Positions 31,863-57,600 are shown, numbered from the stretch's first letter. The stretch: DNA of 64,000 nt from Acidobacteriota bacterium (GCA_965263035.1 OZ253580.1:4544001-4608000); one strand, 5' to 3'. Numbers and translations are program-made. Notes: generated by a model from the letters alone, not told the origin.

Positions 31863-33368
31863 ATGAGACTCATCCATTACCCCGCGATCCTGGCGCTGGC
31901 CGCCCTCTTGTCGCTGCCCGCGGCCCTGGCCGGCGACGTCGTCGACATCGGCTCGCGACGCGAGCTGTTCGTGGATCATCTGCTCGTCGACCGGCTCGTG
32001 GGAGCCAGCCTTCGCCTGGGCACGCCGTTGCCCGGCGGGGTGGCCGTCCGCTTCAACGATCCCGTGGAAGACGACACGGCCTTTTACACCACCATCTTCA
32101 AGGACGGCGACATCTACCGCATGTACTACCGGGGTGCGCTCTTCGAGAGGAAGACCACCTGCTACGCCGAGAGCCGTGACGGGATCAATTGGACGAAGCC
32201 GGACCTGGGACTGGTCTCCATCGACGGCTCCGCTCGAAACCACGTGATCCTGCCCGAGGCGCGCCAGTTCGTCGCCTTCATCGACGGGCGGCCCGGCGTG
32301 CCCGCCTCGGAGCGTTACAAGGGGACTTCGCGGGGACCCGTCGAGCCCAACGCCCTGGTGGGCTTCCTCTCCGGCGACGGCATCCGCTGGCGGATGCTCC
32401 GGGACGAGCCCATCGTGCCCAAGGTCCTGATCAACCACTTCGATTCGCAGAACGTCATGTTCTGGTCGGAGGCCGAAGAGCGATACGTGCTCTACGCCCG
32501 GCACATGGAAGGAGGCCGCCGCGCCACGGCGCGGTCCACCTCCAAGGACTTCATCAACTGGACTCCCCAGGTCCTCATGAGCTACAGCGACACGGGCACG
32601 ACGACTCCCTCGCACCACCTCTACACGAACCAGACCCAGCCCTATTTCCGGGCGCCCCACATCTACATCTCGCTGCCGGCCCGGATCATCTTCGCCGATC
32701 CGCGGCACATCAAGCGCGAGGAGGACAAGGAGCTGGCAAGGGGGCGCCAACGCATCATCACGCCCGAGCTCCGGGACTTCGTCAAGGAGAACATGCCCCT
32801 GATGGGAACGGCGGGGACGGGAGACCACTCCGACGGCGTCCTGCTCACCAGCCGGGCCGGGTCCACGGTCTACGACTTCACCTTCCGGGAGAGCTTCGTC
32901 CGGCCCGGAATCGGCGTCAACAACTGGACGACCCGGACCAACTATCCGGCCTGCGGCATCGTCCCCACCGGTGACGGCGAGATGTCCTTCTACGTGCAGC
33001 GGAACTATGGGCAGAAAGACACGGCGTACCTGGAACGGATGACGCTGCGCCTGGACGGCTTCGCCAGCCTGCACGCGCCCTATCAAGGGGGCGAGATGGT
33101 CACCAAGCCGTTGCGCTTCAAGGGAAACCGGCTGGAGATCAACTACGCCACCAGCGCGGCCGGGAGCCTCCGGATCGAGATCCAGGACCCCAAGGGCCAG
33201 CCGATTCCAGGGTTCACGTTGGACGAGTGTCCCGAGATCATCGGCGACGAGATCGAGCGGAACGTCGCCTGGAAGGGAGATCCCGACCTGAGATCGCTGT
33301 CGGGCAAGCCGGTGCGGATTCGTGTGGTCCTGAAGGACGCCGACCTCTACTCCATCCGTTTCCACTGA
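31863..33368 (+). CDS. Secreted five-bladed beta-propeller hydrolase-like protein (copy 1)
   Basis: Signal peptide; YRMYYRG, YAESRDGINWTKPDLG, FDSQN, STSKDFINW, LRLDGFASL, ADLYSIRF. Confidence 0.7.
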   Translation: MRLIHYPAILALAALLSLPAALAGDVVDIGSRRELFVDHLLVDRLVGASLRLGTPLPGGVAVRFNDPVEDDTAFYTTIFKDGDIYRMYYRGALFERKTTCYAESRDGINWTKPDLGLVSIDGSARNHVILPEARQFVAFIDGRPGVPASERYKGTSRGPVEPNALVGFLSGDGIRWRMLRDEPIVPKVLINHFDSQNVMFWSEAEERYVLYARHMEGGRRATARSTSKDFINWTPQVLMSYSDTGTTTPSHHLYTNQTQPYFRAPHIYISLPARIIFADPRHIKREEDKELARGRQRIITPELRDFVKENMPLMGTAGTGDHSDGVLLTSRAGSTVYDFTFRESFVRPGIGVNNWTTRTNYPACGIVPTGDGEMSFYVQRNYGQKDTAYLERMTLRLDGFASLHAPYQGGEMVTKPLRFKGNRLEINYATSAAGSLRIEIQDPKGQPIPGFTLDECPEIIGDEIERNVAWKGDPDLRSLSGKPVRIRVVLKDADLYSIRFH

Positions 33369-33387
33369 CGCGGCCACGGTGCAGGAA

Positions 33388-35057
33388 ATGAAAAAACACG
33401 GGTTCCTCCTGGCATTCCTGTTGGGCGTCCTCTCCTGCGGCAGCCCTTCCCCGACCCCGAACGTCGCCTCGAAAGGGGAGCCGAAGCGGGAGCGGCGGGT
33501 CCTTTACTACGACTCCGCCGCCGTCCAGTCGCACAGCTACCTGGACCGGGGGAAGGTGGAGCCGTACATGAGCCTCATCTACGACATCCAAACCCACGAC
33601 GATTTCCTGGACGCCAGCGTGCGCATGGTCAAGGGAACCCAGGTGGACACCTACCTGTGGCACATCGGAAACGGGGCCGAGCCGCCGTGGAATATTCCAA
33701 CGGATCTGCTCTGGTCCTGTTTCGATTCCTACGAGCAGGTGAATGACATCGTCATCCGGGCCTGCCGTGAACAGGGTTTGGAGGTCTGGGCGTCGATGCG
33801 CATGAGCGATCTTCACGCGGCCTTCCGGTCCCGGACCCTGGAGGAATTGGACGATGTCTTCAAGACACAACACCCCGAGTACCTGATGGCGCCGATGACG
33901 GACCGCCAGCTCCCGTCCGAGCTGACGGAGCAGCGTCTCTGGGTGTCGTTCGACTACACCCATCCGGAGGTTCGGCAGCATCGTCTCGACTACATCGCGA
34001 AGACCGCCGCCAACCACGACTTCGACGGCTACGAGCTGGACTTCAACCGCATGGGGATCCACTTCCCCATGGGGCAGGGACGGCAAAAAGCCCATCTGAT
34101 TACGGACCTGATGCGGCAGATTCGGGAGCGGCTGAACGCCATCGGAGACGAGCGGGGACGGCCCTACACCCTGGCGGTCCACGTGATGGATTCCCTGGAG
34201 ACCAACCTGGAGATCGGTCTGGACATGGAGGCCTGGGCCCGGGAGGGGCTGGTGGACGCGCTGCTGGTGGGCCTGGGATACATGCCCGACCAGTTGGCCA
34301 TCGGCCAATGGGTGCGGCTGGCCGGGGAGACGGGAGTGCAGGTGTATCCGTCCATCAATCCCAACACCATGCGGGCGGGGGCCTGGGAGACTCTGCGGGG
34401 CAAGCCTCTGTTCCGCGAGGGAATGCGGGCGTATGCCGACTACTACCTGGACCAGGGCGCCGACGGCATCTACCTGTTCAACTTCCGGCACGAGCCGACA
34501 CAACGGCTGACCGAGGAGGAGTTCGAGGGGGTGCTGAGCGAGTTGGGAGCGCCCGAGACCATGGCCGGCAAGGACAAGGTCTACGCCATCAACCCCACGG
34601 CGCATAGCGGCGGGCCGTTCTATCACGGTTCCGAGCCGGCGCTTCTGCCCATCGTGTTGGACCGGGTCGAGCGGAAGTTGCGGATTCATTTGGGTCCCGC
34701 TGCCGAAGACTCGCAGGCAGCCTGCGACTGAGCGTCTTCACGGCCAAGGCCGGAAAGGGGACCACTCTCTGGGTTCGACTCAACCACACCCTGTTAACCG
34801 ACGCCGAGAGGGAAGGGGACTGGTTCCACTTCCAGGTGCCTGCGGGTGTGGCGCGTAACGGAATGAACGAGGTGGGCCTGATCTCGAACGTCCCCGCCGC
34901 CGGCCCCTTCGCGGGTCTGATCGGTCCCCCCAACGCGGATCCGGCCGAGTTCCTGAAGCAAGCCTTCGGCCGCGTCAAGAACGTCATCCAGCGCGACCAG
35001 GACCCGGTTGTGGTCCATCAGGTTTTCCTGGAGATAAGCTACGCTGAGGCGTCCTGA
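33388..35057 (+). pseudogene. TIM-barrel glycoside-hydrolase-like lipoprotein copy 1, with a 1-bp frameshift near 34718
   Basis: CAGGCAGCC here vs CAGGCCAGCC in copy 2; the downstream frame resumes to ...EISYAEAS at 35057. Confidence 0.8.
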
Positions 35058-35171
35058 CATGCCTCGGCATCTGTGACCGCGTCCACGAACAGCGGGCGGG
35101 GGTTTTGCTGGTCGAAGTGTCACTGCATTGCGAGCAACTCTTGTACCAGAGACCCTTGTGACCGCCTGTCG

Positions 35172-35516
35172 TTACCGTTCACCTGAATGCAGCGCAGGTC
35201 GAGTGCCGTAACGGCTCTCGCCACGGGCTGCCAGGGTCGCAGCCGGTTTGATATCGGCAATCAGTTGGCTCCTGTCTCCCGCCAGCTTGCGGAAGTCGCA
35301 CTCGACTTGGATGCCATGCCAGAACTTGTCCGACTGACCGAAGAAGGCCCCAAAACGAATCGACATGGGCGGAGTGATCGACCGCCGCCCAAGGACGATT
35401 TCGTTTATGGCCCTCGGGGAGACACCGATGGCGCGGGCCATGACATTCTGTGAAATCCCCATCGGCTTGAGGTATTCCTCGAGCAGAATTTCTCCGGGTG
35501 TAATGGAGTCTTTCAT
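35172..35516 (-). CDS. higA: HigA/VapI addiction-module antitoxin (copy 1, orphan)
   Basis: [38 protein letters not shown]. Confidence 0.9.
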
Positions 35517-35785
35517 ATCCATTCGGGGCTGTGATGCTACTTGAAGCCGGTGGCGAGGTTCGTTTCCAGACACGACCGGTCGAAGGGCTGGAGCGCAAAG
35601 TTCCACGAACTCAGTTCGGAACCTATCTGAAGTTTCGTCGCCAAGTGCTCGATGCGTTTCGCAGCTACCAGTTCCCCGTCATCCAGCTCCATCTCTCCGT
35701 CCGCGTGACATGATCCAAGACCATCCCGTCGGTATCCTTCTGCCATCCTGGGATTCCAAGGAGTTTGATGTATCCTGAGTTTCCA

Positions 35786-36470
35786 ATGAACAGCAACGAT
35801 CTGAACTGGATCGCCAACTACATCTGGGGTATCGCCGACGACGTGCTGCGCGACCTCTACGTTCGCGGAAAGTACCGTGACGTTATTCTTCCATAACCGT
35901 CCTGCGACGGTTGGATGCGGTGCTGGAAGACAGTAAACAAGCCGTGCTGGAGATGAAAGCCACTCTCGACGCAGTAGGTGTGGTCGAGCAAGATCCGGCC
36001 CTGCAGGAGGCGGCGGGACGGGCTTTCTACAACACCTCGAAGTTCACCTTGCGCGGCTTGAGGTCCCGCGCTAACCGCCAGCAGCTCACGGCTGACTTTG
36101 AGGCCTACCTCGACACCGGAAAAAGATCCACAAGCGAGGGACAAGAGCTGACCCGCTGCTCGGCCTGTTCGCGACCACCGTCAACGGGCGATCTGCCGTG
36201 GTGGAGTACGAACCGGACACCGATTTGCGCGACACCGAGCAGATCCCTCTACCGGACGCGAGAGGCATTGACGGGTTCCTGAGTCGCGAGGTCCTTCCCT
36301 ATGCCGGCGACGCATGGTATCCGCCCAAGAAAAATGAAGATCGGCTACGAGATCAGTTTCAACCGGTATTTTTTCAAGCCGCAGCCGATGCGGTCGCTGG
36401 AGGAGATTCGAGCGGATATCCTGGCGCTGGAGAAAGAATCGGACGGGCTGCTTGACGAGATTCTTGGCTG
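35786..36470 (+). pseudogene. hsdM: Type I RM hsdM relic (nonsense codon, large central deletion, frameshifts)
   Basis: 5' part colinear with hsdM at 62868 (ATG codon changed to give TAA near 35894); joins near 36115 to the C-terminus YEPDTDLRDTEQIP...GYEISFNRYF..RSLEEI. Confidence 0.85.
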
Positions 36471-36553
36471 TCGACCGATCAATCAGGCCGCTCCGGGCTC
36501 AGGAGCGGACACCACTCGCAACAGGGAGTCGCGGAACTGACGGGAGGAAAACG

Positions 36554-36766
36554 ATGAGGCCAATGGAGATCATATTCGAGGTGACCGAGGCGGTCGAAGG
36601 TGGATACGATGCCAGGGCGCTCGGCTATGACATATTCACGCAGGGGGACGATTGGGACGACCTGAAGGCCATGGCTCGAGATGCGGTGCGCTGTTACTTC
36701 GAGGAAGCCAGTGTGCCCAGGGTGATTCGGCTCCACCTCGTCAGGGAAGAGGCCATCGCGGTGTGA
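36554..36766 (+). CDS. hicB: HicB-like antitoxin (short)
   Basis: EIIFEVTEAVEGGYDARALGYDIFTQGDDWDDLKAMARDAV; GTGA overlap with hicA. Confidence 0.75.
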   Translation: MRPMEIIFEVTEAVEGGYDARALGYDIFTQGDDWDDLKAMARDAVRCYFEEASVPRVIRLHLVREEAIAV

Positions 36767-37011
36767 AGCTGCCCAGGAATCTGTCGGGCGAACGGCTTGT
36801 CGGACTGTTGAGCCGTTATTATGGCTACCGCGTGAGTCGCCAAAGCGGCAGTCACATGAACGTGACGCTGACGGTAGGAGGCAAACGCCACAGCGTTGTC
36901 ATTCCCCGCCACCGACAGGTAAGCGTCGGGACTTTGAACGCGATTATCTCTGCCGTTGCCATATTCCACAGAGTCTCGAAACATGAAGTCCGCGAGCAAC
37001 TGTTCGGTTAG
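36763..37011 (+). CDS. hicA: HicA mRNA interferase toxin
   Basis: KLPRNLSG, RQSGSH, VIPRH, GTLNAI. Confidence 0.85.
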   Translation: MKLPRNLSGERLVGLLSRYYGYRVSRQSGSHMNVTLTVGGKRHSVVIPRHRQVSVGTLNAIISAVAIFHRVSKHEVREQLFG

Positions 37012-37063
37012 TCACATGATCTCTGACTACCGTTTTGGCAACGCATGCGGTATCAGCCCTACC

Positions 37064-37350
37064 TTGGAAAACTTCGAGTTCCGCCACCGCTGGAGGAGAT
37101 TCGCGCCAACATGCTGCCAATGGAGAGGGAGACCAATGCGTTGTTCGGCGAGATCCTGGGCGAGGTGGGGTCATGATCGCCAATCTTGCGCCGTATCCGG
37201 CCTACAAGGACTCCGGCGTGGAGTGGTTGGGGAAGTGCCGGAGCATTGGGAAGTGCGGTGGCTGGGCCAGTTCGGGACGCTCTCGAAGGGCAATGGCGGC
37301 AACAAAGGCGATGAGGTTCCCTCCGGAATTCCCTGCGTTCGCTATGGCGG
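37064..37350 (+). pseudogene. hsdS: Scrambled hsdM fragments plus frameshifted hsdS N-terminus
   Basis: LENFEFR and LEEIRAN..ERET hsdM pieces, then MIANLAPYPAYKDSGVEWLG/EVPEHWEV. Confidence 0.75.
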
Positions 37351-37362
37351 CCGCTGTCGAGC

Positions 37363-37614
37363 ATGGACAGGACAGAACGGGTGCGTGCCACTTACCTTCA
37401 TGCTTGCCTGCGATATGTGAACCGAGAATACCTGACCAACACTTCAGTGCGGCAGCGGTTCGGAATCGAAACTCGAAACAGCGCTAAGGCTTCACGACTG
37501 ATTGCAGAGGCTGTCAAGGCAGGTGCTATTGTGCCCGACGACCCGGCAGCGGCTCCCATGCTGATGCGCTATGTGCCGGAGTGGGCGAAGGTCGGGGGGC
37601 GCACCGCTACTTGA
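37363..37614 (+). pseudogene. C-terminal fragment of an AlbA_2/HATPase_c_4-type ATP-binding regulator
   Basis: ERVRATYLHACLRYV..TNTSVRQRFGI..ASRLI..RYVPEWA. Confidence 0.65.
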
Positions 37615-37764
37615 TCAGATGCCACCGAGCAAACGTTCCATGATTTGTCAGGGCCAATAAGGTGTTTGTATTCAACTAGTTGCACACAACGTGTTTACTT
37701 GACGGGTACTTGACAGGATGCTGAGTGGGGACTGACCCCATCGACCGCGGCATCGAGCGCCTCC

Positions 37765-39162
37765 TTGGATCACCTGCTGGTCGACCGGCTCGTCGGAGCC
37801 AGCCTGCGCCTCGGCACGCCGCTGCCGGGCGGGGTGGCGATTCGTTACGACAAACCCGTGGAAGACGCCACGGCCTTCTACACCACCGTCTTCAAGGACG
37901 GCGACCTCTACCGCATGTACTACCGGGGTGCGCTCTTCGAGAGGAAGACCACCTGCTACGCCGAGAGCCGCGACGGGATCCATTGGACCAAGCCCGACCT
38001 GGGACTGGTCTCAGTCGACGGCTCCTCTCAAAACCACGTGATCCTGCCCGAGGCGCGCCAGTTCGTCGCCTTCATCGACGGGCGGCCCGGCGTGCCCGCC
38101 TCGGAGCGCTACAAGGGGACTTCGCGGGGACCCGTCGAGCCCAACGCCCTGGTGGGCTTTCTCTCCGGCGACGGCATCCACTGGCGGATGCTCCGGGACG
38201 AGCCTATCGTGCCCAAGGTCCTGATCAACCACTTCGATTCGCAGAACGTCATGTTCTGGTCGGAGGTGGAAGAGCAGTACGTGCTCTACGCCCGGCACAT
38301 GGAGGGGGGACGACGCGCCACGGCGCGGTCCACCTCCAAGGATTTCATCAACTGGACCCCCCAGGTCCTCATGAGCTACAGCGACACCGGCACGACGACT
38401 CCCTCGCACCACCTCTACGCGAACCAGACCCAGCCCTATTTCCGGGCGCCCCACATCTACATCTCGCTGCCGGCCCGGATCATCTTCGCCGACCCGCGGC
38501 ACATCAAGCGCGAGGAGGACAAGGAGCTGGCACGGGGGCGCCAACGCATCATCACGCCCGAGCTCCGGGACTTCGTCAAGGAGAACATGCCGCTGATGGG
38601 CACCGCGGGGACGGGGGACCACTCCGACGGCGTCCTGCTCACCACCCGGGCCGGCTCCACGGTCTACGACTTCACCTTCCGGGAGAGCTTCGTCCGGCCC
38701 GGAATCGGCGTCAACAACTGGACGACCCGGACCAACTATCCGGCCTGCGGCATCGTCCCCACCGGCGACGGCGAGATGTCCTTCTACATGCAGCGGAACT
38801 ATGGGCAGAAAGGCACGGCGTACCTGGAACGGATGACGCTCCGCCTGGACGGCTTCGCCAGCCTGCACGCGCCCTATCAAGGGGGCGAGATGGTCACCAA
38901 GCCGTTGCGCTTCAAGGGAAACCGTCTGGAGATCAACTACGCCACCAGCGCGGCCGGGAGCCTCCGGATCGAGATCCAGGACCCCAAGGGCCAGCCGATT
39001 CCAGGGTTCACGTTGGACGAGTGTCCCGAGATCATCGGCGACGAGATCGAGCGGAACGTCGCCTGGAAGGGAGATCCCGACCTGAGATCGCTCTCCGGCA
39101 AGCCGGTACGGATGCGTGTGGTCCTGAAGGACGCCGACCTCTACTCCATCCGTTTCCACTGA
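37765..39162 (+). pseudogene. Beta-propeller copy 2, 5'-truncated (no signal peptide)
   Basis: Near-identical to copy 1 from DHLLVDRL onward; upstream sequence differs. Confidence 0.8.
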
Positions 39163-39181
39163 CGCGGCCACGGTGCAGGAA

Positions 39182-40852
39182 ATGAAAAAACACGGATTCC
39201 TCCTGGCGCTCATGTTGGGCATCCTCTCCTGCGGCAGCCCTTTCCCGACCCCGAACGTCGCCTCGAAAGGGGAGCCGAAGCGGGAGCGGCGGGTCCTTTA
39301 CTACGACTCCGCCGCCGTCCAGTCGCACAGCTACCTGGACCGCGGGAAGGTGGAACCGTACATGAGCCTCATCTACGACATCCAAACCCACGACGACTTC
39401 CTGGACGCCAGCGTGCGCATGGTCAAGGGAACCCAGGTGGACACCTACCTGTGGCACATCGGAAATGGGGCTGAGCCGCCGTGGAATATTCCAACGGATC
39501 TGCTTTGGTCCTGTTTTGATTCCTACGAGCAGGTGAATGACATCGTCATCCGGGCCTGCCGTGAACAGGGGTTGGAGGTCTGGGCGTCCGTGCGCATGAG
39601 CGATCTTCACGCGGCCTTCCGGTCCCGGACCCTGGAGGAATTGGACGACGTCTTCAAGACGCAACACCCCGAATACCTGATGGCGCCGATGACGGACCGC
39701 CAGCTCCCTTCCGAGCTGACCGAACAGCGCCTCTGGGTGTCGCTCGACTACACCCATCCGGAGGTTCGGCAGCATCGTCTCGACTACATCGCGAAGACCG
39801 CCGCCAACCACGACTTCGACGGCTACGAGCTGGACTTCAACCGCATGGGGATCCACTTCCCCATGGGACAGGGACGCCGGAACGCCCACCTGATGACGGA
39901 CCTGATGCGGCAGATCCGGGAGCGGCTGAACGCCATCGGAGACCAGCGGGGGCGGCCCTACACCCTGGCGGTCCACGTGATGGATTCCCTGGAGACCAAC
40001 CTGGAGATCGGTCTGGACATGGAGGCCTGGGCCCGGGAGGGGCTGGTGGACGTGCTGCTGGTGGGCCTGGGATACATGCCCGACCAGTTGGCCATTGGCC
40101 AATGGGTGCGGTTGGCTGGGGAGACGGGAGTGCAGGTGTATCCGTCCATCAATCCCAACACCATGCGGGCGGGCGCTTGGGAGACTCTGCGGGGTAAGCC
40201 TCTGTTCCGCGAGGGAATGCGGGCGTACGCCGACTACTACCTGGACCAGGGCGCCGACGGCATCTACCTGTTCAACTTCCGGCATGAGCCGACGCAAAGG
40301 CTGACCGAGGAGGAGTTCGAGGGGGTGCTGAGCGAGTTGGGAGAGCCCGAGACCATGGCCGGCGAGGACAAGGTCTACGCCATCAACCCTACGGCGCACA
40401 GTGGCGGGCCGTTCTATCACGGCTCCGAGCCGGCGCTTCTGCCGATCGTGCTGGACCGGGTCGAACGGAAGCTGCGACTCCATCTGGGTCCCGCCGCCGA
40501 AGACCAGCAGGCCAGCCTGCGTTTGAGCGTCTACACGGCTAAGGCCGGAAAGGCGACCATTCTCTGGGCGCGTCTCAATCACACTCTGTTGTCCGAGCCG
40601 GAACGGGACGGGGATTGGTTCCACTTCCAGGTTCCTGCGGGTGTGGCTCGGAGTGGAATGAACAAGGTGGGCCTAGTTTCGAACGTTCCCGCCGCCGGCC
40701 CCTTCGCGGGCCTAATCGGTCCCCCCAACGCCGACCCGGCGGAGTTCCTGAAGCAGGCCTTCGGCCGCGTCAAGAACGTCGTCCAGCCCGACCAGGAGCC
40801 GGTGGTGGTCCACCAGATCTTTTTGGAAATCAGCTACGCTGAGGCGTCCTGA
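39182..40852 (+). CDS. TIM-barrel glycoside-hydrolase-like lipoprotein copy 2 (intact)
   Basis: Lipobox ILSC; RMSDLH, DYTHPEVR, DFDGYELDFNR, GADGIYLFNF. Confidence 0.75.
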   Translation: MKKHGFLLALMLGILSCGSPFPTPNVASKGEPKRERRVLYYDSAAVQSHSYLDRGKVEPYMSLIYDIQTHDDFLDASVRMVKGTQVDTYLWHIGNGAEPPWNIPTDLLWSCFDSYEQVNDIVIRACREQGLEVWASVRMSDLHAAFRSRTLEELDDVFKTQHPEYLMAPMTDRQLPSELTEQRLWVSLDYTHPEVRQHRLDYIAKTAANHDFDGYELDFNRMGIHFPMGQGRRNAHLMTDLMRQIRERLNAIGDQRGRPYTLAVHVMDSLETNLEIGLDMEAWAREGLVDVLLVGLGYMPDQLAIGQWVRLAGETGVQVYPSINPNTMRAGAWETLRGKPLFREGMRAYADYYLDQGADGIYLFNFRHEPTQRLTEEEFEGVLSELGEPETMAGEDKVYAINPTAHSGGPFYHGSEPALLPIVLDRVERKLRLHLGPAAEDQQASLRLSVYTAKAGKATILWARLNHTLLSEPERDGDWFHFQVPAGVARSGMNKVGLVSNVPAAGPFAGLIGPPNADPAEFLKQAFGRVKNVVQPDQEPVVVHQIFLEISYAEAS

Positions 40853-40966
40853 CGCGCCTGGGCCTCCAGTGCTAGGTCCACGATCAACGGACTGGAGCCG
40901 CGCTGGTCGAAGCATCATTGCGTTGGGAGCAACTCTTGTAGCTGCGACCCTTGTGGCCGCCTGTCG

Positions 40967-41311: not shown

Positions 41312-41320
41312 ATCTATATC

Positions 41321-47900: not shown

Positions 47901-47987
47901 GGGGAATTATAGCGTTGACTAGACCTTTCCCCATCTCCCGTCTCCATCCATCCCAAAGTCATATTAACGTGGTACAGTTCTTCCACC

Positions 47988-48869: not shown

Positions 48870-48879
48870 ACATCCCAAG

Positions 48880-49218: not shown

Positions 49219-49470
49219 CTTCTCCTTATCTTGTAAGGGAGATTGTCTGCCTGACTAGATTCCTCCCAATGTAAACGATGTGAAAACTCGGGGATTGTCT
49301 ATTTAACTTGACGTCCCCGCATCACAAGACGCTCTATCTTCCTTCCCACTTGCCAAGGCGAAGTACTGGAGGAGGAGGCCACACAGGACATCTACAGTCT
49401 AATCGTCCGGGTATTATAGGAAGGCCACCTTCCCGAAGATTAACGACACGGCCAAGAAAGAGGGAGCATC

Positions 49471-49941: not shown

Positions 49942-51255
49942 CTATTCTGTCCTCTCCTCGTGGATCATCTGTCCACGAAATCGGGACACCTTCAAGATGC
50001 TTTGTTCATCAAATCCCGATCCCGAACGCTTCCTCCAGCAGACTGTAATCGGCGACCAGGTCTAACATCTTCAGAGCACGCTTAGAGAATTGCATCGGGA
50101 CGAGTTTGTCGGTGATAAGCGCTGAGCGCAGTTTCATCCTTTCGACTGGGATATTCGTCAATTGTGCGAGCCGTTTTCGACTGGAGTGAAGGTACGACAT
50201 GCGGTCAAGGTGCCTCTGAATTGGTGTGCGGACACCGGCATTGGCGACGTTAGTATATTCGGCCAGACGCTCGCCAATCTCACCGATTGTACGATCGAAC
50301 CTTAGACGCTTGCACTCAATCACATAGACCACATCGGTATGAAGCTGCCAAGCGAGGACGTCAATATCGCCGAGTTCGCTGCCGCCGCCTAGACTAGTTA
50401 AATCCAACTCGCTATGCACCTTCCAGTGAAGTTCATTGAGCCGTAGAGCAACTCTGCGGTTGAAGTCATGACCATTCCGGTCAGCCACATGCCCGATCCA
50501 GGATTTCATCTCTTCGCTATCGAAGAGACTAGTGGGCAAGTCTCCAGACTCAGCCATGCCGAGGTAACCGAGCGTTCTATCGAGCAACGTTGGCATAATT
50601 AACACATCCGGATCCTTGTTGGTCGAGATCTGCACAAGAGGGCGGCGCATAAGCGACAGACGGCGATTGTAGCGCCAAGGATACCAGTCGCGCTTGTTGG
50701 CTTGCTCAGGTCTATCCTCATCCCACTTTGGCCTAGGTGACAAGGAAAACATTCCAAATGTACGTTCTGGATGCACCACTCCGAGGTGTCTCAATCGACA
50801 CAGCACATTACTTCTCGAGAGCCAGAAAAGCGCTGTGCGTTGCTCCAAAGCTTTCTCAGTGACACTAACAACAAATTTGCTGTATTGAGTTATGCTCAGA
50901 CCGAACTCCTTAGTGAAAGCTGCGTCGAAATCTTTGTCTATCACTTCCCCCTCACCATCACTCACAAGAGCCGAGCCATCGTTGTCCGCAGCCTTCTGGA
51001 AAGTTCGCTCGCCGTACGCCTCCAAAAAAGGGGCTAGCGTCCCGCCGATTGACAGATCAAAGCCAAACGAGCCGTTGGCATGCACGATGGGCTTATGAGC
51101 CACTAGATCATAGTACATTGCATCGCTCTGGCTGGCGCATTCCAAAAGTGTCACCACCTCCGCGATCAGAAAATCCAGGTCCGCACCAGTGCAGGCCATA
51201 CCGCCATGGCACGGCGAGGTGCAGAGTGCCATTTCTGTAATCACGCGACTAGCTA

Positions 51256-52405
51256 GTGTAGTGTCCCGTTAGTTCGTGTATAATAATAGGCGGTTCCTCA
51301 TTCAGAAAGGAGACTGCCTATGCCCCGCGGACGCAAACTTCCCCCCTTGGTACTCAGCGACGAGCAGCGACATCAACTCCAGGGAGTCGCCCGTTCCACC
51401 AGTCTGCCTCACGGCTTGGTCCTGCGAGCCCGCATGATCCTGGCCAGTGCCGAGGGCCTCACCAACCGGGCAGTGGCCGAACGGGTCGGGGCTTCGCCCC
51501 AAGCCGTCGGCAAGTGGCGTCGACGCTTCCTCGAACTCGGCGTTCAGGGCTTGCATGACGAGCTTCGTCCCGGTCGTCCCCGCAGCTACGACGACGAGAA
51601 GGTCGCCCAGGTGATCAGCCGCGCTCTGCAGCAGAAGCCGGCCAACGCCGAGAACTGGAGCGTGCGCTTGATGGGCGCCGCCGAGGGCGTCTCCAAGACC
51701 ACCGTGCAGCGCTGGTTCTCGCTTTTTGGCATCAAGCCTCATCTGGCCCAGACCTTCAAGCTCTCCAACGACCCCTTCTTCATCGAGAAGGTCCGAGATA
51801 TCGTGGGACTTTACCTCCATCCCCCCGACCACGCCATGGTGCTGTGCGTCGACGAGAAGTCTCAAATCCAGGCCCTGGACCGGACCCAACGGGCCCTGCC
51901 CCTGGGTCTCGGGTACGTTCAAGGATATACGCACGATTACATCCGCCACGGCACCACCACCCTTTTCGCGGCCCTGGATGCCGCCACGGGTCGCGTGATC
52001 GCTCAATGCAAGAAGCGCCACCGCCACCAGGACTTCCTGGCCTTTCTGAGGTTGATCGACCGGGAAGTGCCGCCCGATCTGGACCTCCACTTGGTCGTCG
52101 ACAACTATGCCACGCACAAGCATCCACGGGTCCGGGCCTGGATTGCCAAGCGGCCACGCTACCACTTACACTTCACCCCCACCTACGCCTCCTGGCTCAA
52201 CCAAGTGGAGCGCTGGTTCGGTTTGATCACACAGCGAGCGATCAAGCGCACCTCGTTCCGCAACGTGAGACACTTGGTGAAGACGATTGAGGAATTCACC
52301 CATCGATACAACCAAGAGGCGAAACCCTTCGTGTGGGCCGCCACAGCCCAATCCATCCTGGACAAGCTAGCACGATTATCTACTCGTATTTCCAGGACAC
52401 CACAC
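51256..52405 (+). mobile_element. IS630-family element
   Basis: TA duplication within CTAG; TIRs GTGT(A/G)GTGTCC. Confidence 0.93.
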
Positions 52406-52408
52406 TAG
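51320..52408 (+). CDS. IS630 transposase
   Basis: DELRPGRP, CVDEKSQIQAL, HDYIRHGT, VVDNYATHK, FTPTYASWLNQVERWF; stop codon formed by the target site. Confidence 0.95.
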   Translation: MPRGRKLPPLVLSDEQRHQLQGVARSTSLPHGLVLRARMILASAEGLTNRAVAERVGASPQAVGKWRRRFLELGVQGLHDELRPGRPRSYDDEKVAQVISRALQQKPANAENWSVRLMGAAEGVSKTTVQRWFSLFGIKPHLAQTFKLSNDPFFIEKVRDIVGLYLHPPDHAMVLCVDEKSQIQALDRTQRALPLGLGYVQGYTHDYIRHGTTTLFAALDAATGRVIAQCKKRHRHQDFLAFLRLIDREVPPDLDLHLVVDNYATHKHPRVRAWIAKRPRYHLHFTPTYASWLNQVERWFGLITQRAIKRTSFRNVRHLVKTIEEFTHRYNQEAKPFVWAATAQSILDKLARLSTRISRTPH

Positions 52409-54151
52409 GCCAGCAAGATCTCGTTGGCCATATCGCTCGTTCACAACTTGTACTACTTCCGCGGTATTGCTGTGCATTGCAAGTAGAGCAGCTGCCGCGC
52501 GGTGCCAATCCCTCCGATCCTTCTGGATTGCCTCGAAGTTCAAGAGAGACCGCTCGATCACGGTCGCACGGTCGAGGGTAAGCAACCGAGCCTTGATGCG
52601 TTCCCAAACCGCGTCCACCGCTTGTATCAAAATCTTATTAGCCCGAGACTCAGGGATTGGCCCTGGAGGTGAAGTCCAGCCCGCCTTACGTGCGAGGCCG
52701 AGACGACTCCATGCCAAATCCTCTGGTTGCAAGAACCTTGGTTGCGGCAACGGGACTGAGTCGTAGATTATATCTTTGGGATTTGTAGCAGGAATGAGGT
52801 GCAAGCAGCGTGCGTCGTCAGAACGGACTACATTCTGCACGAATTCGCTCAGCGCCGCCGCGTGTGGGACCGGGACATCGCAGAGCATGTACGCACCTCG
52901 CACCAGTGCGGCAATCATTAGGCGGTCGCCCACATTCTGCCTGTTAACAAAACTACGCAGATATCCGGGCGAGCACATGATCAACACTTTTCCGTTATAT
53001 ATCTCAACCGATGGTGCCGATGAAGGCTCTTTGATCAACGCGAAGTCGTCCGTAAATCTTTCTATATCTGGGAACCGAAGGCGGTAGGTGACAGGCGCTG
53101 GAGGTAGCGTTGTTAGTTGTTTCTCGAGTAACGGTGCCAAAGGAACCAGCCAGTTAAGGACCAATCTTACTATTTCGGCTACAAGGCGTCGAAGCCGTTT
53201 CGGTCCTCGAACCTCGTTACAATGAACCCACCATGGACGTGTGCTGGTCTCGACACACGCCAACAGTTCGCCCCCGACTGCGTGGTGGGGACTAACGAAA
53301 ACAAGCTGGTTTTGAGTTTCGCGAAAGAAGGTACTCGGAGTTTCACGCTCGACCTCGATCCATGATTTCTCATCTGGGGCGATGATGCCATGCCGGTCGA
53401 GAGCTACGCGCAGCCGATGACGCAAGAGCGCAATGGAGTCGGTGTGCAAATAGATTAGCCCAAGTTCCATGCTCTCTGGAATGAGTTCAAAATCCCGGCA
53501 AGAGGCGGATGCGTAAAGGTTTAAAAAGCCACCCAGGTTCAAGATGGAGACATCACGTTTTTGAAGCGCGGTCTCTTGATTGAGTAGCTTCCAGGCTCGA
53601 AGAGCTGTGAACTTGGATTCGCTCCCCAGAAAAATGAAGTCAGAGATGGGCAAGGCCAAACGCTGCCAACTAGGTGGAGGTTCGCCAAACTCGGCGAAGA
53701 ATCCACGTCCAATACCGCCGTGGACGAGCAAAGTCAATCCGCGGCGGTAATCGCGTTTGGACGCAAGAACCGCCGTGCGTGCGTTAATGCACTCGCCGAT
53801 CGCCCTCACGAGTGACTGAACGCTCTGAAGCCCTTCCCGAGCGGTCTCAGCGAGATCGTCTGGGACAAAGATTAGATGGACGTAACCGCCATCGTCGAAC
53901 TCCCCCACAAGATTCACTATACCTTCCGACCCGATTGGCTCCGGCGCGGTGGTCGATTGGATATTCCACGCTTGGCATCCCAGCGCGTAGACATTGTAGA
54001 GTTGTTCCTCAGTAGTTGCTGCATGAAGTACCTCAAGGTTCCCGGCCACGGTGGCTTGCTCAATGATAAATCTTCGGATGGCCGCGCCGATAGCAGTCGG
54101 GAGCGCGACGATCGTCTGGTCGTTGAAACGCACGAGAGGGCGGCGCTCTAA

Positions 54152-55916
54152 CCTGCATTTCTCATCAGTAGAACAATAAACGGAAGTTGAACCGTCGTCT
54201 GGGTGATTCTTTATCCATACGAGTTCAAGAGGCAGTTTTCGTGCTCGAACGTGCCGACCAACGGCCAGATGCAGCGCTTCTCCAGAGCCTTTTGACGCCC
54301 ATCCTGCGCTTCTGAGCGACGACTCTCGACCCGGTGCCCACTCCGGGGCGCAGTCCATCCTGGGGACTCCCAAGTCGCCATCGTCCAAAGAGTTCTTTCC
54401 ATCCGTTGCTAACAGCGAAGCGGGAGGGCTTGCACTTGCGTCAGAGCCGTCCTCAACAGCGCCGCATACGGATAGCTCTCGGAAAAGGACAACCAGACCT
54501 TGCGGCTGGTGATCCGGACCTGTGCCCCGATCTTCAGCAATCTCACCCGCAGGGTCCAGCTCTGCGCCCGCGCCAGCTTCGTCCCCGCCAGCCCCACCCG
54601 TCGCAACGTCTCCATCATCACGTAGGCGAATGCCGAGAAATACAACCGCAGTTGATTCCCCGCCAGCTTCCGGGTCGACGTGCGGTCCGCAAACAGACCC
54701 ATCTGCTGTTCCTTTATCCGATTCTCCATGTCTCCCCGCGCGCAGTAGACCTCCTCGTACAATCTTCGCCCATCGCATTCCTGGACCGGGACCGAAGTCA
54801 CGATGAATCGCGGGTTCTTTCCCCGGGGCAGGTGCTCCACCTTCGCCACCACCCGGCGCTCGCACGACCAACTCTTGTGCGTCTGATAGCGCAGTTCCTG
54901 GAACTGCCTCACGGCCTTCCCGATCGCCCGCTGCAACTGCCGGACGGTCTCCATCCGGGTCGCGATCCTCCGCTTCAGCCGATCGTTCTGCGCCAACCCC
55001 AGGACGTAATCGATCCCTTCCTTCTCGCACCAGACCATCAACTCGTCGTTGGAGAAGGCACTGTCCCCTCGAACCGTGATCCGCACCTGGGGCCACGCTT
55101 CACGCAGCCGCCTCACGATTGGTTCCAACTCCGCCACCACCCCGTGGGCCGCGCCTCGATCCGCCGTGCGCAGCCGCGCACGCAACAGGTGTTCCCCACA
55201 GAAGACGTACAGCGGCAGGTAGCAGTAGCGTTTGTAATAGCCGTGGAAGAACCGTCCCTCCTGCTTCCCATGCAGCGGATCGTCCGTGGCGTCTACATCC
55301 AGGATCACCTCCTCCGGGGGCTCCGGATGCGCTTCCACAAACACCTCCAGCAGCAGCTCGTCCATCCCCGCCGGGTCGGCCACGATCTTCTTGTACGCGC
55401 CCTCCGGTCCCTCCAACGGAGTCCGCTCCAGTCGGTTCAGGGTGCTCTTGCCTGCCAGCGGCTTGCCTCGATCCGACTCCACGCGCCGGAACTCCCCCGT
55501 CAGATCATCTCGATCACACAACAGCGCCAAGAGCCGGTCCCGGCACAACTCGTCGTGGTCGTTGAGGTCCTCGTAGCCCAGGCACAGCCCCAGCACCCGC
55601 TGTTTGATCAACGCCTCCACCGGGTGTTCGACTCGATCCGAGTCTCGATAGTCGGTGAAGCATTCGCTCAGACGACCCAGAATCCGGGTCCGCTGCTCCA
55701 CTTCGCGCAGGAGCACGCCACCGGCGTCGGAGGTGATCTCGCCGCCGTCGAACCGGCCCACGACATCCCGTCCGTCCAGGCCCTGAAATCTGAGCTTTAT
55801 TCTGGTACACTCTGCGGTCATAAGGTCGCGTCCCTTCTGCTTTGTAAGTTATTGATTACACAACACTTATAGCAGAAAACGCGGCCTTTATCAATCTTTC
55901 TGATGAGATATCCGGG
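54152..55916 (-). mobile_element. IS1380-family element
   Basis: TIRs CCTGCATTTCTCATCAG / CCCGGATATCTCATCAG; TSD CTAA; IHF-like site near 55846-55858. Confidence 0.93.
54409..55821 (-). CDS. IS1380 transposase
   Basis: TSDAG, GYEDLND, LDVDATDD.HGKQE, RGDS, YCARGDMENRIKE. Confidence 0.95.
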   Translation of the reverse strand: MTAECTRIKLRFQGLDGRDVVGRFDGGEITSDAGGVLLREVEQRTRILGRLSECFTDYRDSDRVEHPVEALIKQRVLGLCLGYEDLNDHDELCRDRLLALLCDRDDLTGEFRRVESDRGKPLAGKSTLNRLERTPLEGPEGAYKKIVADPAGMDELLLEVFVEAHPEPPEEVILDVDATDDPLHGKQEGRFFHGYYKRYCYLPLYVFCGEHLLRARLRTADRGAAHGVVAELEPIVRRLREAWPQVRITVRGDSAFSNDELMVWCEKEGIDYVLGLAQNDRLKRRIATRMETVRQLQRAIGKAVRQFQELRYQTHKSWSCERRVVAKVEHLPRGKNPRFIVTSVPVQECDGRRLYEEVYCARGDMENRIKEQQMGLFADRTSTRKLAGNQLRLYFSAFAYVMMETLRRVGLAGTKLARAQSWTLRVRLLKIGAQVRITSRKVWLSFSESYPYAALLRTALTQVQALPLRC

Positions 55917-57024
55917 CTAAGGCAGTATGTCCCAGCGTTTCTTCGACAAGTAGGGCTGCGTGCCTCGGCTGAAAGACAAACGGGTTGAGATCTTCAGGGG
56001 ATACGCCCAACGCAAAGATATCAGCTTCGCTAAAGCTCACGTGAGCTGCACACGACCTGAGGGTTGAAGCAGTGATCTTTATGGGTTGCTTCGGTAGACT
56101 TTCCGTGAGCGTGTTCCGGGTTGCGCAGACACGTTCAGCTACGGCTTCGCTGACGCGAAGCATGGCCATGACACGCCTCTGTACCACGGTTACCCAGGGA
56201 CGGTCCCTGATCCTAGACAGGGCAGCGAGGCACGTCTGAACATAGTGATCATTGTTGTGCCAATCGCCCATGAAAAGGCGAGCGTTGCCAAACGAAGTGA
56301 CGACATTTGAGACGAAAACATCTTCAATGGGGTCTTCAATCTCCGTAATCCGATCTTGGAGGATGATGACATTCAGCCATTCCTGCACCTGTCGTTGGGT
56401 CGGTGCCAGCGAGCCGTGACATGTCAACGCCGCAAGGTGAATGAGTGCCTCGATCCGTTTAGTAGCGGTATGGTTCTCAGGTTGTGTCAGCAATCCTGCG
56501 AGAGGTTGCGCTAGTGAAAGGAAGTTGAATTTTTCAAGGCGCCGAATCAACCTCTTGAGACGTAAGGCAATATCTTTGATTCGATAAACGTCATTGGCTA
56601 CAGACATTGCCATGAATTCGTTCATTGCATTACTAATCTGATCGTGTGGCGGCATATTTTCACTCATAACACATGCTCAGCGGATAACAGCGTGGCAACT
56701 GAGTTCACGATGATAATACTCAGAGGCTCTGTCTCGGTCTGAAATTGGGCCGTCGTCATGGGTTGGAATTAGACTGGTTGTCGCGCATGGAGCGGCTCGG
56801 GGAAGCCAAGTCGGGATTCCGCAACGTGACCGAGGCAAGCCAACACGACCAGTCCGGGCGGCCGAACAGTGATAAAGATGATGGGGGACTTCGCCAAAGA
56901 TCGGCAATCTCTTGGAACTTATTGAACCTCTCTCCGGTGCTTTCTCGGTGCCCTTTTGAGCCTTTCTCCCGGGCTTCCCGCAGAGACTATTGAGACGGGA
57001 GCGACCCTCCCAGAGAGTATGGCG

Positions 57025-57055
57025 GAGAGAGAAGGTGACAGTCACCTTCTCTCTC
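57025..57055. repeat. 31-bp palindrome (REP-like or terminator)
   Basis: GAGAGAGAAGGTGAC-A-GTCACCTTCTCTCTC. Confidence 0.7.
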
Positions 57056-57158
57056 GCGGTCACGTTCTCTCGCGACCGGCGGGCGGGAGCCGCACAGATC
57101 GAAACATCATTGAGTTGGGGGCAATTCCTGTAGCAGCGACCCTTGTGGCTGCCTGTCG

Positions 57159-57503
57159 CTACCGTTGACCAGAATGCGGCACGGGTCGAGCACCGTGGCG
57201 GCCTTCGTTCCGGGCTGCGACCGCCGTAGCGGGTTGAATGCCGGCAATCAGTCGGATCCTGTCCCCGGCCAGCTTGCGAAAGTCACACTCGACTTGGATG
57301 CCATGCCAGAACTTGTCCGACTGACCGAAGAAGGCGCCAAAACGAATCGACATGGGCGGAGTGATCGACCGCCGGCCAAGGACGATTTCATTAATCGCCC
57401 TCGGGGAGACACCAATGGCGCGGGCCATTGCATTCTGTGAAATCCCCATTGGCTTGAGGTATTCCTCAAGCAAAATCTCTCCGGGCGTGATGGGCTCTTT
57501 CAT
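57159..57503 (-). CDS. higA: HigA antitoxin copy 3
   Basis: Paralog of copies 1 and 2, including homologous 3' flank. Confidence 0.9.
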
Positions 57504-57511
57504 TCTCCTTT

Positions 57512-57529
57512 TCCTATAACGTTATAGGA
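57512..57529. promoter_or_regulatory. 18-bp palindrome TCCTATAACGTTATAGGA (candidate HigA operator)
   Basis: Perfect palindrome just upstream of the higA RBS. Confidence 0.55.
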
Positions 57530-57536
57530 TAGTTCT

Positions 57537-57600
57537 TCAATGTGAATCTACGATAACCTCCGATCGCCACCTGTTCTGGCCCTGTCTCGGTCCACCTGAA
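57537..57600 (-). pseudogene. higB: higB 3' remnant cut by an IS1380-like end
   Basis: FRWTETGPEQVAI; abuts CCCGGATTATTCAC at 57601. Confidence 0.65.

Follow-up and report, generated by a model that had tools for sequence, protein, structure and literature searches.

In an uncultured Acidobacteriota, a pair of glycosidase-like genes with an adjoining antitoxin gene is present three times in series, with unlike cargo between the copies. Within the window (the whole stretch of DNA analysed, 64,000 nucleotides), the copies, here called A, B and C, are made up as follows.

31972..35522, plus strand: unit copy A (prop, lip and higA)
31863-33368, plus strand: prop of copy A, with signal peptide
33379-34731, plus strand: lip of copy A, with lipobox
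35172-35516, minus strand: higA of copy A
37766..41317, plus strand: unit copy B (5'-truncated prop, lip and higA)
37765-39162, plus strand: prop of copy B, 5'-truncated, beginning at codon 52
39173-40852, plus strand: lip of copy B, intact
40967-41311, minus strand: higA of copy B
41354-41650, minus strand: higB next to copy B, intact, just past the end of that copy
45726..47425, plus strand: unit copy C, part 1 (last 21 bp of prop and an intact lip)
45762-47438, plus strand: lip of copy C, intact, with a variant C-terminus
57025-57055: perfect palindrome of 31 nt at the left edge of copy C part 2
57073..57600, minus strand: unit copy C, part 2 (higA and the last 15 codons of higB)
57159-57503, minus strand: higA of copy C

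Self-blastn aligned A (31972-35522) with B (37766-41317) at 93.33% identity over 3553 columns, A (33343-35041) with C (45726-47425) at 93.35% over 1700, and B (39137-40836) with the same segment of C at 93.12% over 1700. Copy C lies in two parts (93% and 84%), the second of which matches A at 83.5% over 431 (35086-35516 to 57073-57503) and B at 84.3% over 521 (40888-41398 to 57080-57600). The triplicated unit is a real repeat, far beyond chance, and the positions given in a first-pass annotation for the three units and the third higA (57.2 kb) are right. Its term "near-identical" is too strong, as identity is 93% overall and falls to 80-90% at the 3' end. That annotation also placed a propeller gene and higA/higB in every unit: prop is full in A, lacks its first 51 codons in B and is reduced to the last 21 bp in C, while higA is present in 3/3 copies and intact higB only beside B. 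Copies B and C start at non-homologous breakpoints within the unit. Self-blastn located the sequence left of the B junction nowhere else in the window. The junctions from B into spacer 2 and from spacer 2 into C (at 45726) are unique to the window, and at these two a chimeric join of strain variants is possible.

The lip family profile matches the GH156 exosialidase 6rzd (E 2.5e-42, profile positions 123-504), and distant lip relatives carry PF02638 (GHL10); lip is a predicted GH156-sialidase-like lipoprotein. Matches of the prop family profile are moderate to weak (6n1a, 2e-10; GH130 7fip, 1.7e-5; GH32, 4e-4) and back the prediction of a secreted five-bladed-propeller glycosidase-like protein, so that the propeller and TIM-barrel lipoprotein folds guessed earlier have profile matches behind them. 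The prop of B is without signal peptide, and a 1-nt deletion at 34717 shortens the lip of A to 450 aa (vs 559), with the read-through frame ending at 35057. The dN/dS between copies is 0.09-0.16, a signal of selection, including the truncated prop of B and the post-frameshift part of the lip of A. The higA of copy A matches TIGR02607 (1.3e-24, 85.8 bits vs a cut-off of 47.7), and higB (PF05015, 1.3e-10) was found beside copy B only; C retains 15 codons of it and A none, leaving the higA of A and C as orphan genes. HigA beside a RelE-like HigB, the arrangement of a HigBA type II toxin-antitoxin, is thus seen at copy B only.

Flanks and cargo in the window

The genes flanking and separating the copies are listed below.

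27422..30229, plus strand: TrlF-family / Ppl-like AAA ATPase (NCBIfam NF045780, 443 bits vs cut-off 350; PADLOC Ppl, 2.9e-38)
30548..31777, plus strand: leuB, conserved left flank (Pfam Iso_dh, 2.2e-71; NF002898, 466 bits vs cut-off 393; syntenic in 8 relatives)
35523..37765, plus strand: spacer 1 (hsdM remnant, hicA domain, weak hsdS-like fragments)
35722-36282 and 36198-36540, plus strand: N- and C-terminal parts of the hsdM remnant (PADLOC MTase_I positions 42-107 and 576-660 of 661)
36793-36951, plus strand: hicA domain (Pfam HicA, 3.5e-8)
36956-37487, plus strand: weak hsdS-like fragments
37724-37740: short GGGG..CCCC hairpin directly before the B junction
41735..45725, no strand assigned: spacer 2 (LprI gene, IS1595, further ORFs; GC 43-58%)
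41931-42956, minus strand: LprI-domain protein (Pfam; weak HEPN_RiboL-PSP match)
43321-44268, plus strand: IS1595 transposase (Pfam; NF033547)
44385-45715, minus strand: unassigned ORFs
47426..57072, no strand assigned: 9.6-kb insertion between lip C and its higA (DUF433, PIN-like, P63C, VCH_CASS14-like, Upx-like pieces, IS630, IS1380)
47514-47732: DUF433 (Pfam)
47735-48031: PIN-like (Pfam)
47988-48869: P63C (Pfam)
48880-49218, minus strand: VCH_CASS14-like (Pfam)
55891-56667, about 52427-54160 and 50009-51244, minus strand: Upx-like gene in three pieces (PADLOC Upx positions 13-251, 246-835 and 846-1255 of 1271)
51320-52408, plus strand: IS630 transposase interrupting the Upx-like gene (NCBIfam)
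54409-55821, minus strand: IS1380 transposase interrupting the Upx-like gene (NCBIfam)
57781-61056, minus strand: PDC-M23B, Hachiman-HamB-like DEAD helicase (PADLOC, E 0, 1397 bits)
61053-61754, minus strand: PDC-M23A (PADLOC, 9.4e-90, 298 bits)
61841..62230, minus strand: hsdS C-terminal remnant (PADLOC Specificity_I, 2.8e-23, positions 331-456 of 458)
62787..64000, plus strand: hsdM, type I restriction-modification (R-M), running off the window (Pfam HsdM_N and N6_Mtase; PADLOC MTase_I, 1.5e-128)

Cargo GC is 43-54%, as against 63-66% in the units. The defence genes recognised by PADLOC are the TrlF/Ppl-like gene, the broken Upx-like gene, PDC-M23AB and parts of a type I R-M system, of which hsdM is intact to the window end, the sole hsdS after C is the opposite-strand remnant and hsdR is absent from the window. 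The TrlF/Ppl-like gene (GC 51%) sits between GNAT and leuB, in the same hotspot and outside the repeat array (31863..57600); it has no tblastn match in L001-L024, where the GNAT-leuB gap is about 200-600 bp. The two PDC-M23 genes are adjacent with a 4-nt overlap and form a candidate defence pair (57781..61754); PDC-M23, a PADLOC candidate system, is not known to act in defence.

Much of the cargo is relic, as seen in the hsdM remnant and in the Upx-like gene, which IS630 and IS1380 have broken up. This Upx-like gene had been taken for a giant nuclease; an intact single Upx ORF of about 1250 aa is absent, and the N- and C-terminal pieces, the two that were scanned, reach 95 and 219 bits vs an NCBIfam cut-off of 1900. 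In spacer 1, the proposed hsdM relic and hicA were recovered, the hsdS-like fragments are weak matches, and no hicB was detected. Spacer 2 does hold LprI and IS1595, while its suggested HEPN domain is a weak match (E 0.017, below cut-off), and PADLOC recognised no defence gene there. Pfam recovered the DUF433-PIN, P63C and VCH_CASS14-like genes reported after C. Moreover, the spacers do not differ completely, as had been stated: 35722-36114, in the hsdM remnant after A, is 83.5% identical to 62804-63197, in the hsdM after C. The island contains three DDE transposases (IS1595, IS630 and IS1380), and no tyrosine or serine recombinase was found by Pfam in 62 + 24 ORFs, in support of the proposed lack of an integrase.

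The locus in related genomes

Relatives were viewed over +/-10 kb around each match, and the right border of the island lies beyond the window; of 101 listed relative ORFs, 84 were scanned with Pfam and 59 with PADLOC. The gene order NYN-GNAT-leuB-prop-lip is kept in L001, L002, L003, L005, L006, L007 and L023, and leuB-prop-lip in L008. Eight related Acidobacteriota metagenome-assembled genomes (MAGs) carry 1-2 full lip copies each, to which some add fragments; additional copies of the unit, full or partial, occur in 5/8. Further, more diverged prop-lip clusters are present in the same genomes (L015-L022). The 5' breakpoints of extra copies fall into six classes (about 31972, 32020, 33210, 33343, 33838 and 34921 in A coordinates), all of which continue to the lip 3' end. 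Gene content downstream of lip differs among relatives, and PADLOC matches at E <= 1e-8 were obtained in 7/8 relative loci scanned, as a raw count.

L001: HEC-06/GmrSD, PDC-S31
L002: DUF433-PIN, PDC-S18, PDC-M27ABC, AbiJ
L004: PDC-S11
L005: BilD-like, PDC-M23
L006: Mrr, PDC-M23
L007: PIN-AF2212, HEC-06, PIN-TPR-GreABC
L023: PDC-M23

In L003, 4 ORFs gave no PADLOC match. The locus downstream of leuB is a chromosomal defence hotspot, marked by its conserved left flank and variable cargo; fixed copy number and cargo in relatives had been named beforehand as speaking against such a view, and both vary. PDC-M23 is conserved at 93-95% in L005, L006 and L023; it is no closer to relatives (93-96%) than core genes are (85-95%). 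Several junctions are shared: the independent MAG L003 has exactly the same sequence at the 5' junction of B (A-spacer 1-B), that between lip C and DUF433 is common to L002, and that between higA and PDC-M23 is common to L006 and L023.

Recombination traces and age of the array

Comparison of A, B and C yielded 166 variable sites in 86 runs, vs 115.2 +/- 5.8 expected, a value that 0/10000 permutations reached. The three-way mosaic has C as the odd copy at 33347-33504, A identical to C over 323 bp and B identical to C over 452 bp. The unit copies recombine with each other; identical tracts could in principle also be polishing artefacts in a repeat. In the lip tree, same-genome copies cluster together (A and B of the window at 100/99, the L005 pair and the L007 pair). 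In the higA tree, it is position that groups copies from different genomes, and same-genome copies do not come together; the higA of C groups with those adjoining PDC-M23 in L006 and L023. Judged from this tree, the higA paralogues predate the split of these genomes, and turnover through the repeats would therefore not be fast. Since higA copies group by position and L003 has the same B junction, the array is old and slowly remodelled rather than a fast accordion, as had been proposed.

The segment from the lip 3' end of A to the start of B is 98.6% identical to L003 (2702/2740), vs 92.5% for leuB-prop-lip (4092/4424) and 90.3% for the start of copy B (186/206; Fisher p 3e-35 for the identity contrast). 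This pattern fits a recent exchange of that segment through crossovers that fell within the repeats or at their edges. Such exchange is seen for one cargo segment only, with mostly relics inside. The mosaic tracts and this segment lend partial support to the earlier idea of the repeats as recombination scaffolds.

Origin of the array and comparison with known systems

We favour, as the probable explanation, an integrase-less hotspot whose left border module was copied inward, its repeats serving homologous recombination. The border module (prop, GH156-like lip and higBA) would have been copied into its own island downstream of leuB by at least two old segmental duplications or one-sided homologous insertions, yielding 5'-truncated, 3'-complete extra copies, and at least one duplication may have brought along adjacent type I R-M genes. 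Housekeeping homologous recombination would convert the copies across the kb-long repeats, so that even truncated copies stay selected-looking. The repeats may also act as crossover points, with DNA between two copies replaced from relatives or deleted, while IS1595, IS630, IS1380, toxin-antitoxin pairs and low-GC defence genes would arrive and decay between them. The analysis demonstrates that the unit is repeated, that its copies are mosaics, that an old junction is shared, that relatives vary and that one inter-copy segment is anomalously similar. From these, we infer the stacking, swapping or removal of cargo through repeat recombination.

Simple tandem duplication of a segment with later decay, the repeats being by-products and cargo being brought by IS or other mobile elements, is rather unlikely. 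Several observations speak for it. A larger segment was duplicated, since copy A is followed by a remnant homologous to the hsdM that follows C, and this hsdM remnant suggests that at least one spacer is a leftover of that segment and not inserted cargo. Every extra copy is 5'-truncated and 3'-complete, which fits tandem duplication with a left breakpoint within the unit; the paralogues are old; and IS1595, IS630 and IS1380 are on site, so that some cargo could have moved without a role for the repeats. However, the mosaic tracts show recombinationally active repeats, the ends of the 98.6% L003-like segment coincide with repeat edges and, the hsdM piece aside, the spacers have nothing in common. 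Adaptive amplification, in which extra GH156-like lip genes would be retained to raise dosage or diversify substrates, the defence genes being incidental, appears improbable: the prop of B is without signal peptide, the lip of A is frameshifted and decay is plain in the partial copies of L002, L003, L005 and L023. Its best arguments are the intact lip in B, C and the second copies of L004 and L007, the lip 3' end retained in every extra copy, the diverged prop-lip clusters mentioned above and the low dN/dS, this last being explicable by gene conversion alone.

An assembly artefact, with strain haplotypes bearing unlike cargo after one unit joined in series, would agree with a source genome that is probably metagenome-assembled (as all close relatives are MAGs), with a copy divergence of about 7%, typical between strains, and with low dN/dS even in truncated copies, as for orthologues of separate strains. 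Yet the junctions shared with L003, L002, L006 and L023 make it extremely improbable, whole-chromosome relatives also hold 2-3 full or partial copies, and mis-joins in a shared-k-mer graph would not give the non-homologous breakpoints at which B and C begin.

The palindrome raises the question of a site-specific cassette system, in which a ~30-nt palindrome would be the site of a recombinase encoded elsewhere (integron- or Xer-module-like) or a template-switch hairpin. Close loci totalling 179,795 bp contain 8 instances of the 9-mer core GGGACAGTC, vs 2.47 +/- 1.6 expected (0/200 Markov simulations reach 8); 4/8 core sites lie <=35 nt upstream of the start of unit homology (L004, L005, L006 and L007), the sequences left of the palindromes are unrelated to one another and the perfect palindrome of the window adjoins C part 2. 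We nevertheless regard such a system as very unlikely, given that no recombinase was found among the ORFs scanned in the window, that the palindrome is absent at the C junction (45726) and at the left side of every cargo, and that its distance to the breakpoint varies from 0 to 35 nt. In addition, profile matches outside the training set are weak (E 0.003-0.008), the window shows no enrichment of the pattern GGGGACWGWC (1 occurrence vs 1.25 expected) and some palindromes resemble ordinary terminators (L001, L003 and L004). A more speculative form of our explanation, which we hold with considerable doubt, is a cassette array without its own integrase, in which border-module copies would be portable homology arms and the ~30-nt palindrome would mark the right border of each cargo block. 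DNA entering with one copy might then, though we think it doubtful, be stacked by one-sided or Campbell-type crossover and removed by inter-copy crossover; the palindrome, just as tentatively, would be the site of a recombinase encoded elsewhere or a hairpin-prone breakpoint.

Integron cassette arrays and the dif-module arrays of Acinetobacter plasmids carry small defence or toxin-antitoxin modules in series, and the locus resembles them in its serial small modules, its VCH_CASS14-like protein and the short palindrome at several module borders. It differs from integrons in having no intI (the ORFs scanned show neither Phage_integrase nor any other recombinase domain), and from both in its mixed gene orientations and in repeated borders of kb-long coding sequence; the one palindrome that recurs (57025-57055) does not enclose every gene. 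Tandem segmental duplication with concerted evolution by gene conversion shares with the locus the direct kb-scale repeats, within-genome clustering and mosaic identical tracts, but here unrelated defence, toxin-antitoxin and IS cargo lies between the copies, and one segment was seemingly exchanged laterally.

Closer parallels are found among core-flanked hotspots. Those outlined in PMC5635113 (2017) likewise combine a conserved core flank (here leuB-prop-lip), high accessory and defence turnover, no integrase and signs of recombination in flank genes. In comparison with that outline, the flank module here is repeated inside the island (3 times in the window; at most 2 full copies plus fragments in relatives), and therefore a single module, copied on one island side, can supply both crossover anchors; moreover, the copies convert each other. 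Core defence hotspots with no single mobilising mechanism were described by Johnson et al. 2023 (PMC10250203). Like Pseudomonas aeruginosa cDHS1 and cDHS2 as presented there, the locus sits at a constant chromosomal site that core genes mark, contains many different defence systems, has transposases as its most frequent mobility genes and lacks a single element that mobilises it; it belongs to another phylum and has other flanking genes, and the string "duplicat" is absent from the main text of that article. We read the locus as a homologous-recombination-driven, integrase-less defence hotspot, whose novelty is the flank module copied into the island.

The locus bears on how integrase-less defence islands gain and lose systems, for which the usual account is double crossover in conserved flanks. 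The sequence traces here are inter-copy gene conversion and a recent exchange ending at two copies. If the pattern is general, internal flank duplicates would allow independent swap, stacking or deletion of island blocks, and would be a simple sequence signature of such hotspots in uncultured phyla; were the array of portable cassettes real, it would be a chromosomal, RecA-driven functional analogue of the integron for defence genes. The locus also offers testable Acidobacteriota candidates, namely PDC-M23, the TrlF/Ppl-like ATPase and the GH156-like lipoprotein.

The repeated unit and its cargo

Three direct copies of one unit, composed of the genes prop, lip and higA, were detected in the window by a repeat scan and self-blastn, which bears out the triplication described in the first-pass annotation, with corrections. 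Copies A and B are 93.3% identical over 3553 columns with a single 1-nt indel, and copy C lies in two parts, the first sharing 93% identity with A and B across 1700 bp and the second 84% with the higA region. The prop of copy B starts at codon 52, and copy C has lost all of prop but its final 21 bp. The same annotation had placed higA and higB in every copy; higA is indeed found in all three, whereas higB (PF05015) is kept only beside copy B.

Features of the array (positions in the window; strand where recorded)
27422-30229: TrlF-family/Ppl-like AAA ATPase between GNAT and leuB, GC approximately 51%
31863-33368: prop, with a signal peptide
31972-35522: copy A, with higA on the minus strand
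35523-37765: spacer 1; hsdM with its middle deleted, hicA domain, weak hsdS-like pieces
37766-41317: copy B
41735-45725: spacer 2 beyond its higB; LprI-domain protein, IS1595, ORFs at 44.4-45.7 kb
45726-47425: copy C, part 1
Between lip C and its higA: 9.6-kb insertion; DUF433, PIN-like gene, P63C, VCH_CASS14-like gene, Upx-like gene
50009-56667: Upx-like gene in three pieces, split by IS630 (transposase 51320-52408) and IS1380 (transposase 54409-55821)
57073-57600: copy C, part 2
After higA C: intact PDC-M23 pair, hsdS remnant, hsdM running past the window end

Fold statements on prop and lip are based on sequence profiles compared with PDB sequences. The prop family profile matched five-bladed-propeller glycosidases at moderate-to-weak E-values (6n1a, 2e-10; GH130, 1.7e-5; GH32); no Pfam or NCBIfam model matched prop, and as a single sequence it returned only spurious antibody matches among PDB sequences. 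The lip product carries a lipobox, its family profile matched the solved GH156 exosialidase 6rzd (2.5e-42), and GHL10 is carried by distant lip relatives; higA matched TIGR02607 (85.8 bits). In copy A, lip has a 1-base deletion at 34717 (one C of a CC), which ends the protein early at 450 aa. This position is intact in B, C and the related locus L003, and as dN/dS of about 0.1 persists downstream, the frameshift is suggested to be recent or a sequencing error. Genomes of the close loci also hold diverged clusters (L015-L018, L020-L022) in which a single lip (54-57% identity) is accompanied by as many as three prop paralogues (26-41%), so that the prop-lip pairing is a theme of glycan degradation older than the array. 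The closest lip relative (protein P0001) belongs to a 90%-identity cluster of 188 member sequences, yet one contig is listed.

The spacers had been described as wholly different, which does not hold, as 35722-36114 is 83.5% identical to 62804-63197 and links the sequence behind copy A with the hsdM behind copy C. The hsdM remnant and hicA expected in spacer 1 were recovered and the hsdS-like pieces are weak, but the predicted hicB had no Pfam match there, relaxed search included. In spacer 2, LprI and IS1595 were confirmed, the HEPN match of the LprI-domain protein was sub-threshold, neither its N-terminus nor the 44.4-45.7 kb ORFs matched NCBIfam or relaxed Pfam models, and PADLOC returned no match. 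Moreover, the supposed giant nuclease proved by PADLOC and NCBIfam to be an Upx-like defence gene broken by IS630 and IS1380; its pieces match the profile without a break (positions 13-251, 246-835 and 846-1255) and no position is lost, so that both insertions look recent. Fragments of IS1380 are also held by two close loci (L001 and L004). A review (PMC13223576) tabulates both Upx and Ppl among defence genes. No TrlF-like gene was found at the listed close loci, where the GNAT-leuB gap is a few hundred bp; the hotspot therefore takes insertions across leuB, on its other side, as well.

The units have a GC content of 63-66%, most of the cargo one of 43-54%. A Pfam scan of 86 ORFs yielded neither an integrase nor a resolvase domain, and an integron was discarded, as intI is absent and gene orientations are mixed. 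Rfam returned a tRNA-Arg (25831-25904) as its sole match, no tandem repeats were found in 27-64 kb, and no long inverted repeats were found bracketing the cargo.

Related loci and the age of the array

Species-representative genomes were scanned with a lip alignment, which yielded 62 loci. Nine of these share roughly 90% protein identity; they come from eight MAG records of Acidobacteriota. NYN-GNAT-leuB-prop-lip is found in the same order at seven loci, and L008 begins at leuB. Downstream of lip, Pfam and PADLOC gave different content at each close locus, comprising GmrSD/HEC-06, PDC-S31, PDC-S18, PDC-M27ABC, AbiJ, PDC-S11, BilD-like E1, Mrr, PIN-AF2212, PIN-TPR-GreABC and PDC-M23. Extra full or partial unit copies are present in five of the eight genomes. 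Both cargo and copy number vary, then, contrary to the fixed cargo and copy number that the first-pass annotation had named as refuting its model.

Extra unit copies at the close loci
L004: second full lip 45 kb away
L007: second full lip 1.3 kb away
L005: 1206-bp unit piece
L023: 205-bp and 600-bp unit pieces, plus higBA
L003: copy B remnants
L002 (same genome as L004), 12143-12264: 122-bp copy of the lip 3' end, directly after the DUF433-PIN that follows the full lip

The 122-bp copy is the smallest of a nested series of 3'-anchored partial copies. The 5' breakpoints of the extra copies fall into six classes, all retaining the lip 3' end.

Several junctions of the window recur elsewhere: the independent MAG L003 has an identical join of spacer 1 to the truncated prop B, L002 has that of lip C to DUF433, and L006 and L023 have that of higA C to PDC-M23. 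The junctions on both sides of spacer 2 were seen in the window only, as assembled. In a tree of the higA segment, A grouped with L003 and L007, C with L006 and L023, and B stood alone (supports 96-100); since the copies group with positional counterparts in other genomes, the triplication of the higA segment must be older than the split of these genomes.

Conversion, a probable exchange and possible origins of the copies

In the lip tree, copies of the same genome grouped together instead (window A with B, 100/99; the L005 pair, 99/98; the L007 pair, 87/95), and window C joined L004 (92/99). This contrast between same-genome and positional grouping is a hallmark of gene conversion. In addition, a mosaic analysis of A, B and C at 166 variable sites within the shared 1700 bp gave a blocky odd-one-out pattern: C stands apart at 33347-33504, A matches C over 323 bp from 33604, B matches C over 452 bp from 33982, and the last 600 bp are star-like. 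The 86 runs observed, against 115.2 +/- 5.8 expected, were reached in none of 10000 permutations. Synonymous divergence (dS) amounts to 0.13-0.16 within the converted stretch and rises to 0.25-0.43 in higA and to 0.53 at the lip 3' end. dN/dS is 0.09-0.16 throughout prop and lip, including the truncated prop B and lip A beyond its frameshift, which conversion from a selected copy would explain.

Between the window and L003, identity stands at 92.5% for leuB-prop-lip (4092/4424) and at 90.3% for the opening 206 bp of copy B, and other stretches range between 78 and 95%, whereas 35025-37765 (higA A and spacer 1) reaches 98.6% (2702/2740; Fisher p 3e-35). As this stretch consists mostly of pseudogene remnants, vertical descent would mean faster divergence than in core genes, not divergence six times slower, and we read it as a recent lateral replacement, bounded by the 3' end of lip A on one side and the beginning of copy B on the other. 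The first-pass annotation proposed that near-identical repeats act as scaffolds for stacking and swapping defence cassettes. This is partly supported by the mosaic tracts and, as the best single support, by this one exchange bounded by two copies, a single event that carries the scaffold interpretation; against it, PDC-M23 and DUF433-PIN showed no clear excess similarity to relatives.

As for how the copies arose, two origins fit their form. One is a tandem duplication that started within the unit and reached into the R-M genes beyond it, with which the hsdM remnant after A agrees; the other is the insertion of foreign DNA anchored by unit homology on one side only, with which the distinct lineage of the copy B 3' end and the low GC of spacer 2 agree. 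That every extra copy is 5'-truncated and 3'-complete would follow from either.

Integrase-less hotspots with turnover through recombination in conserved flanks (PMC5635113), and core defence hotspots without a single mobilising element (PMC10250203), have been described. Compared with the hotspots as presented there, the flank module is here reiterated inside the island, and it shows both conversion and an exchange that has a copy at either end. A limited keyword search of the literature found no account of hotspot flank genes duplicated internally, which is weak evidence of absence. We thus regard the locus as probably a hotspot of known kind, its new element being the internally repeated flank module.

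Palindromes at unit edges and other features of the window

At the left edge of copy C part 2 there is a roughly 30-nt palindrome (perfect at 57025-57055). The palindrome, with the core GGGACAGTC, is conserved: in different genomes it coincides with the left edge of several 5'-truncated unit copies or lies shortly before it.

Palindrome sites at the close loci
L001: 19610-19660
L004: 8592-8642
L005: 16427-16477
L006: 17389-17439, at the same higA edge as in the window
L007: 12741-12791
L023: 13480-13528

In L004, L005 and L007, related palindromes precede the unit breakpoints by 0-35 nt. Across 180 kb of close loci there are 8 instances of the 9-nt core, compared with 2.5 +/- 1.6 in simulations, none of which (0/200) reached 8; the pattern GGGGACWGWC showed no enrichment in the window (1 occurrence, 1.25 expected). 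Further matches to a covariance model built from the palindrome copies were weak (E 0.003-0.008), one of them at 62507-62557. As the DNA to the left of each palindrome shares nothing, they were rejected as the end of one common element; the palindrome might act as a terminator, belong to the REP-like elements or form a breakpoint-prone hairpin.

Further upstream, the window differs from the block order of its relatives, which is GHL10-like gene (22.6-23.9 kb in the window), TonB-dependent receptor (16.2-18.7 kb) and tRNA-Arg, and 16.2-25.7 kb thus appears to be a local rearrangement in the window's lineage. An IS1595 (24694-25638) adjoins the tRNA-Arg, and a 165-bp inverted repeat is present at 1326-1490 and 23920-24084 (97.6%). 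Two inverted cation-efflux (CDF) transporter genes, at 5527-6435 and 15125-16034, are 72% identical over 914 bp. Moreover, 18762-20143 holds a truncated PDC-S01-like AAA_14/DUF4143 gene (PADLOC, 9.9e-60), with a small ORF and then a VapC-like PIN-domain gene behind it, a stretch that constitutes a further small defence/TA patch 10 kb upstream.
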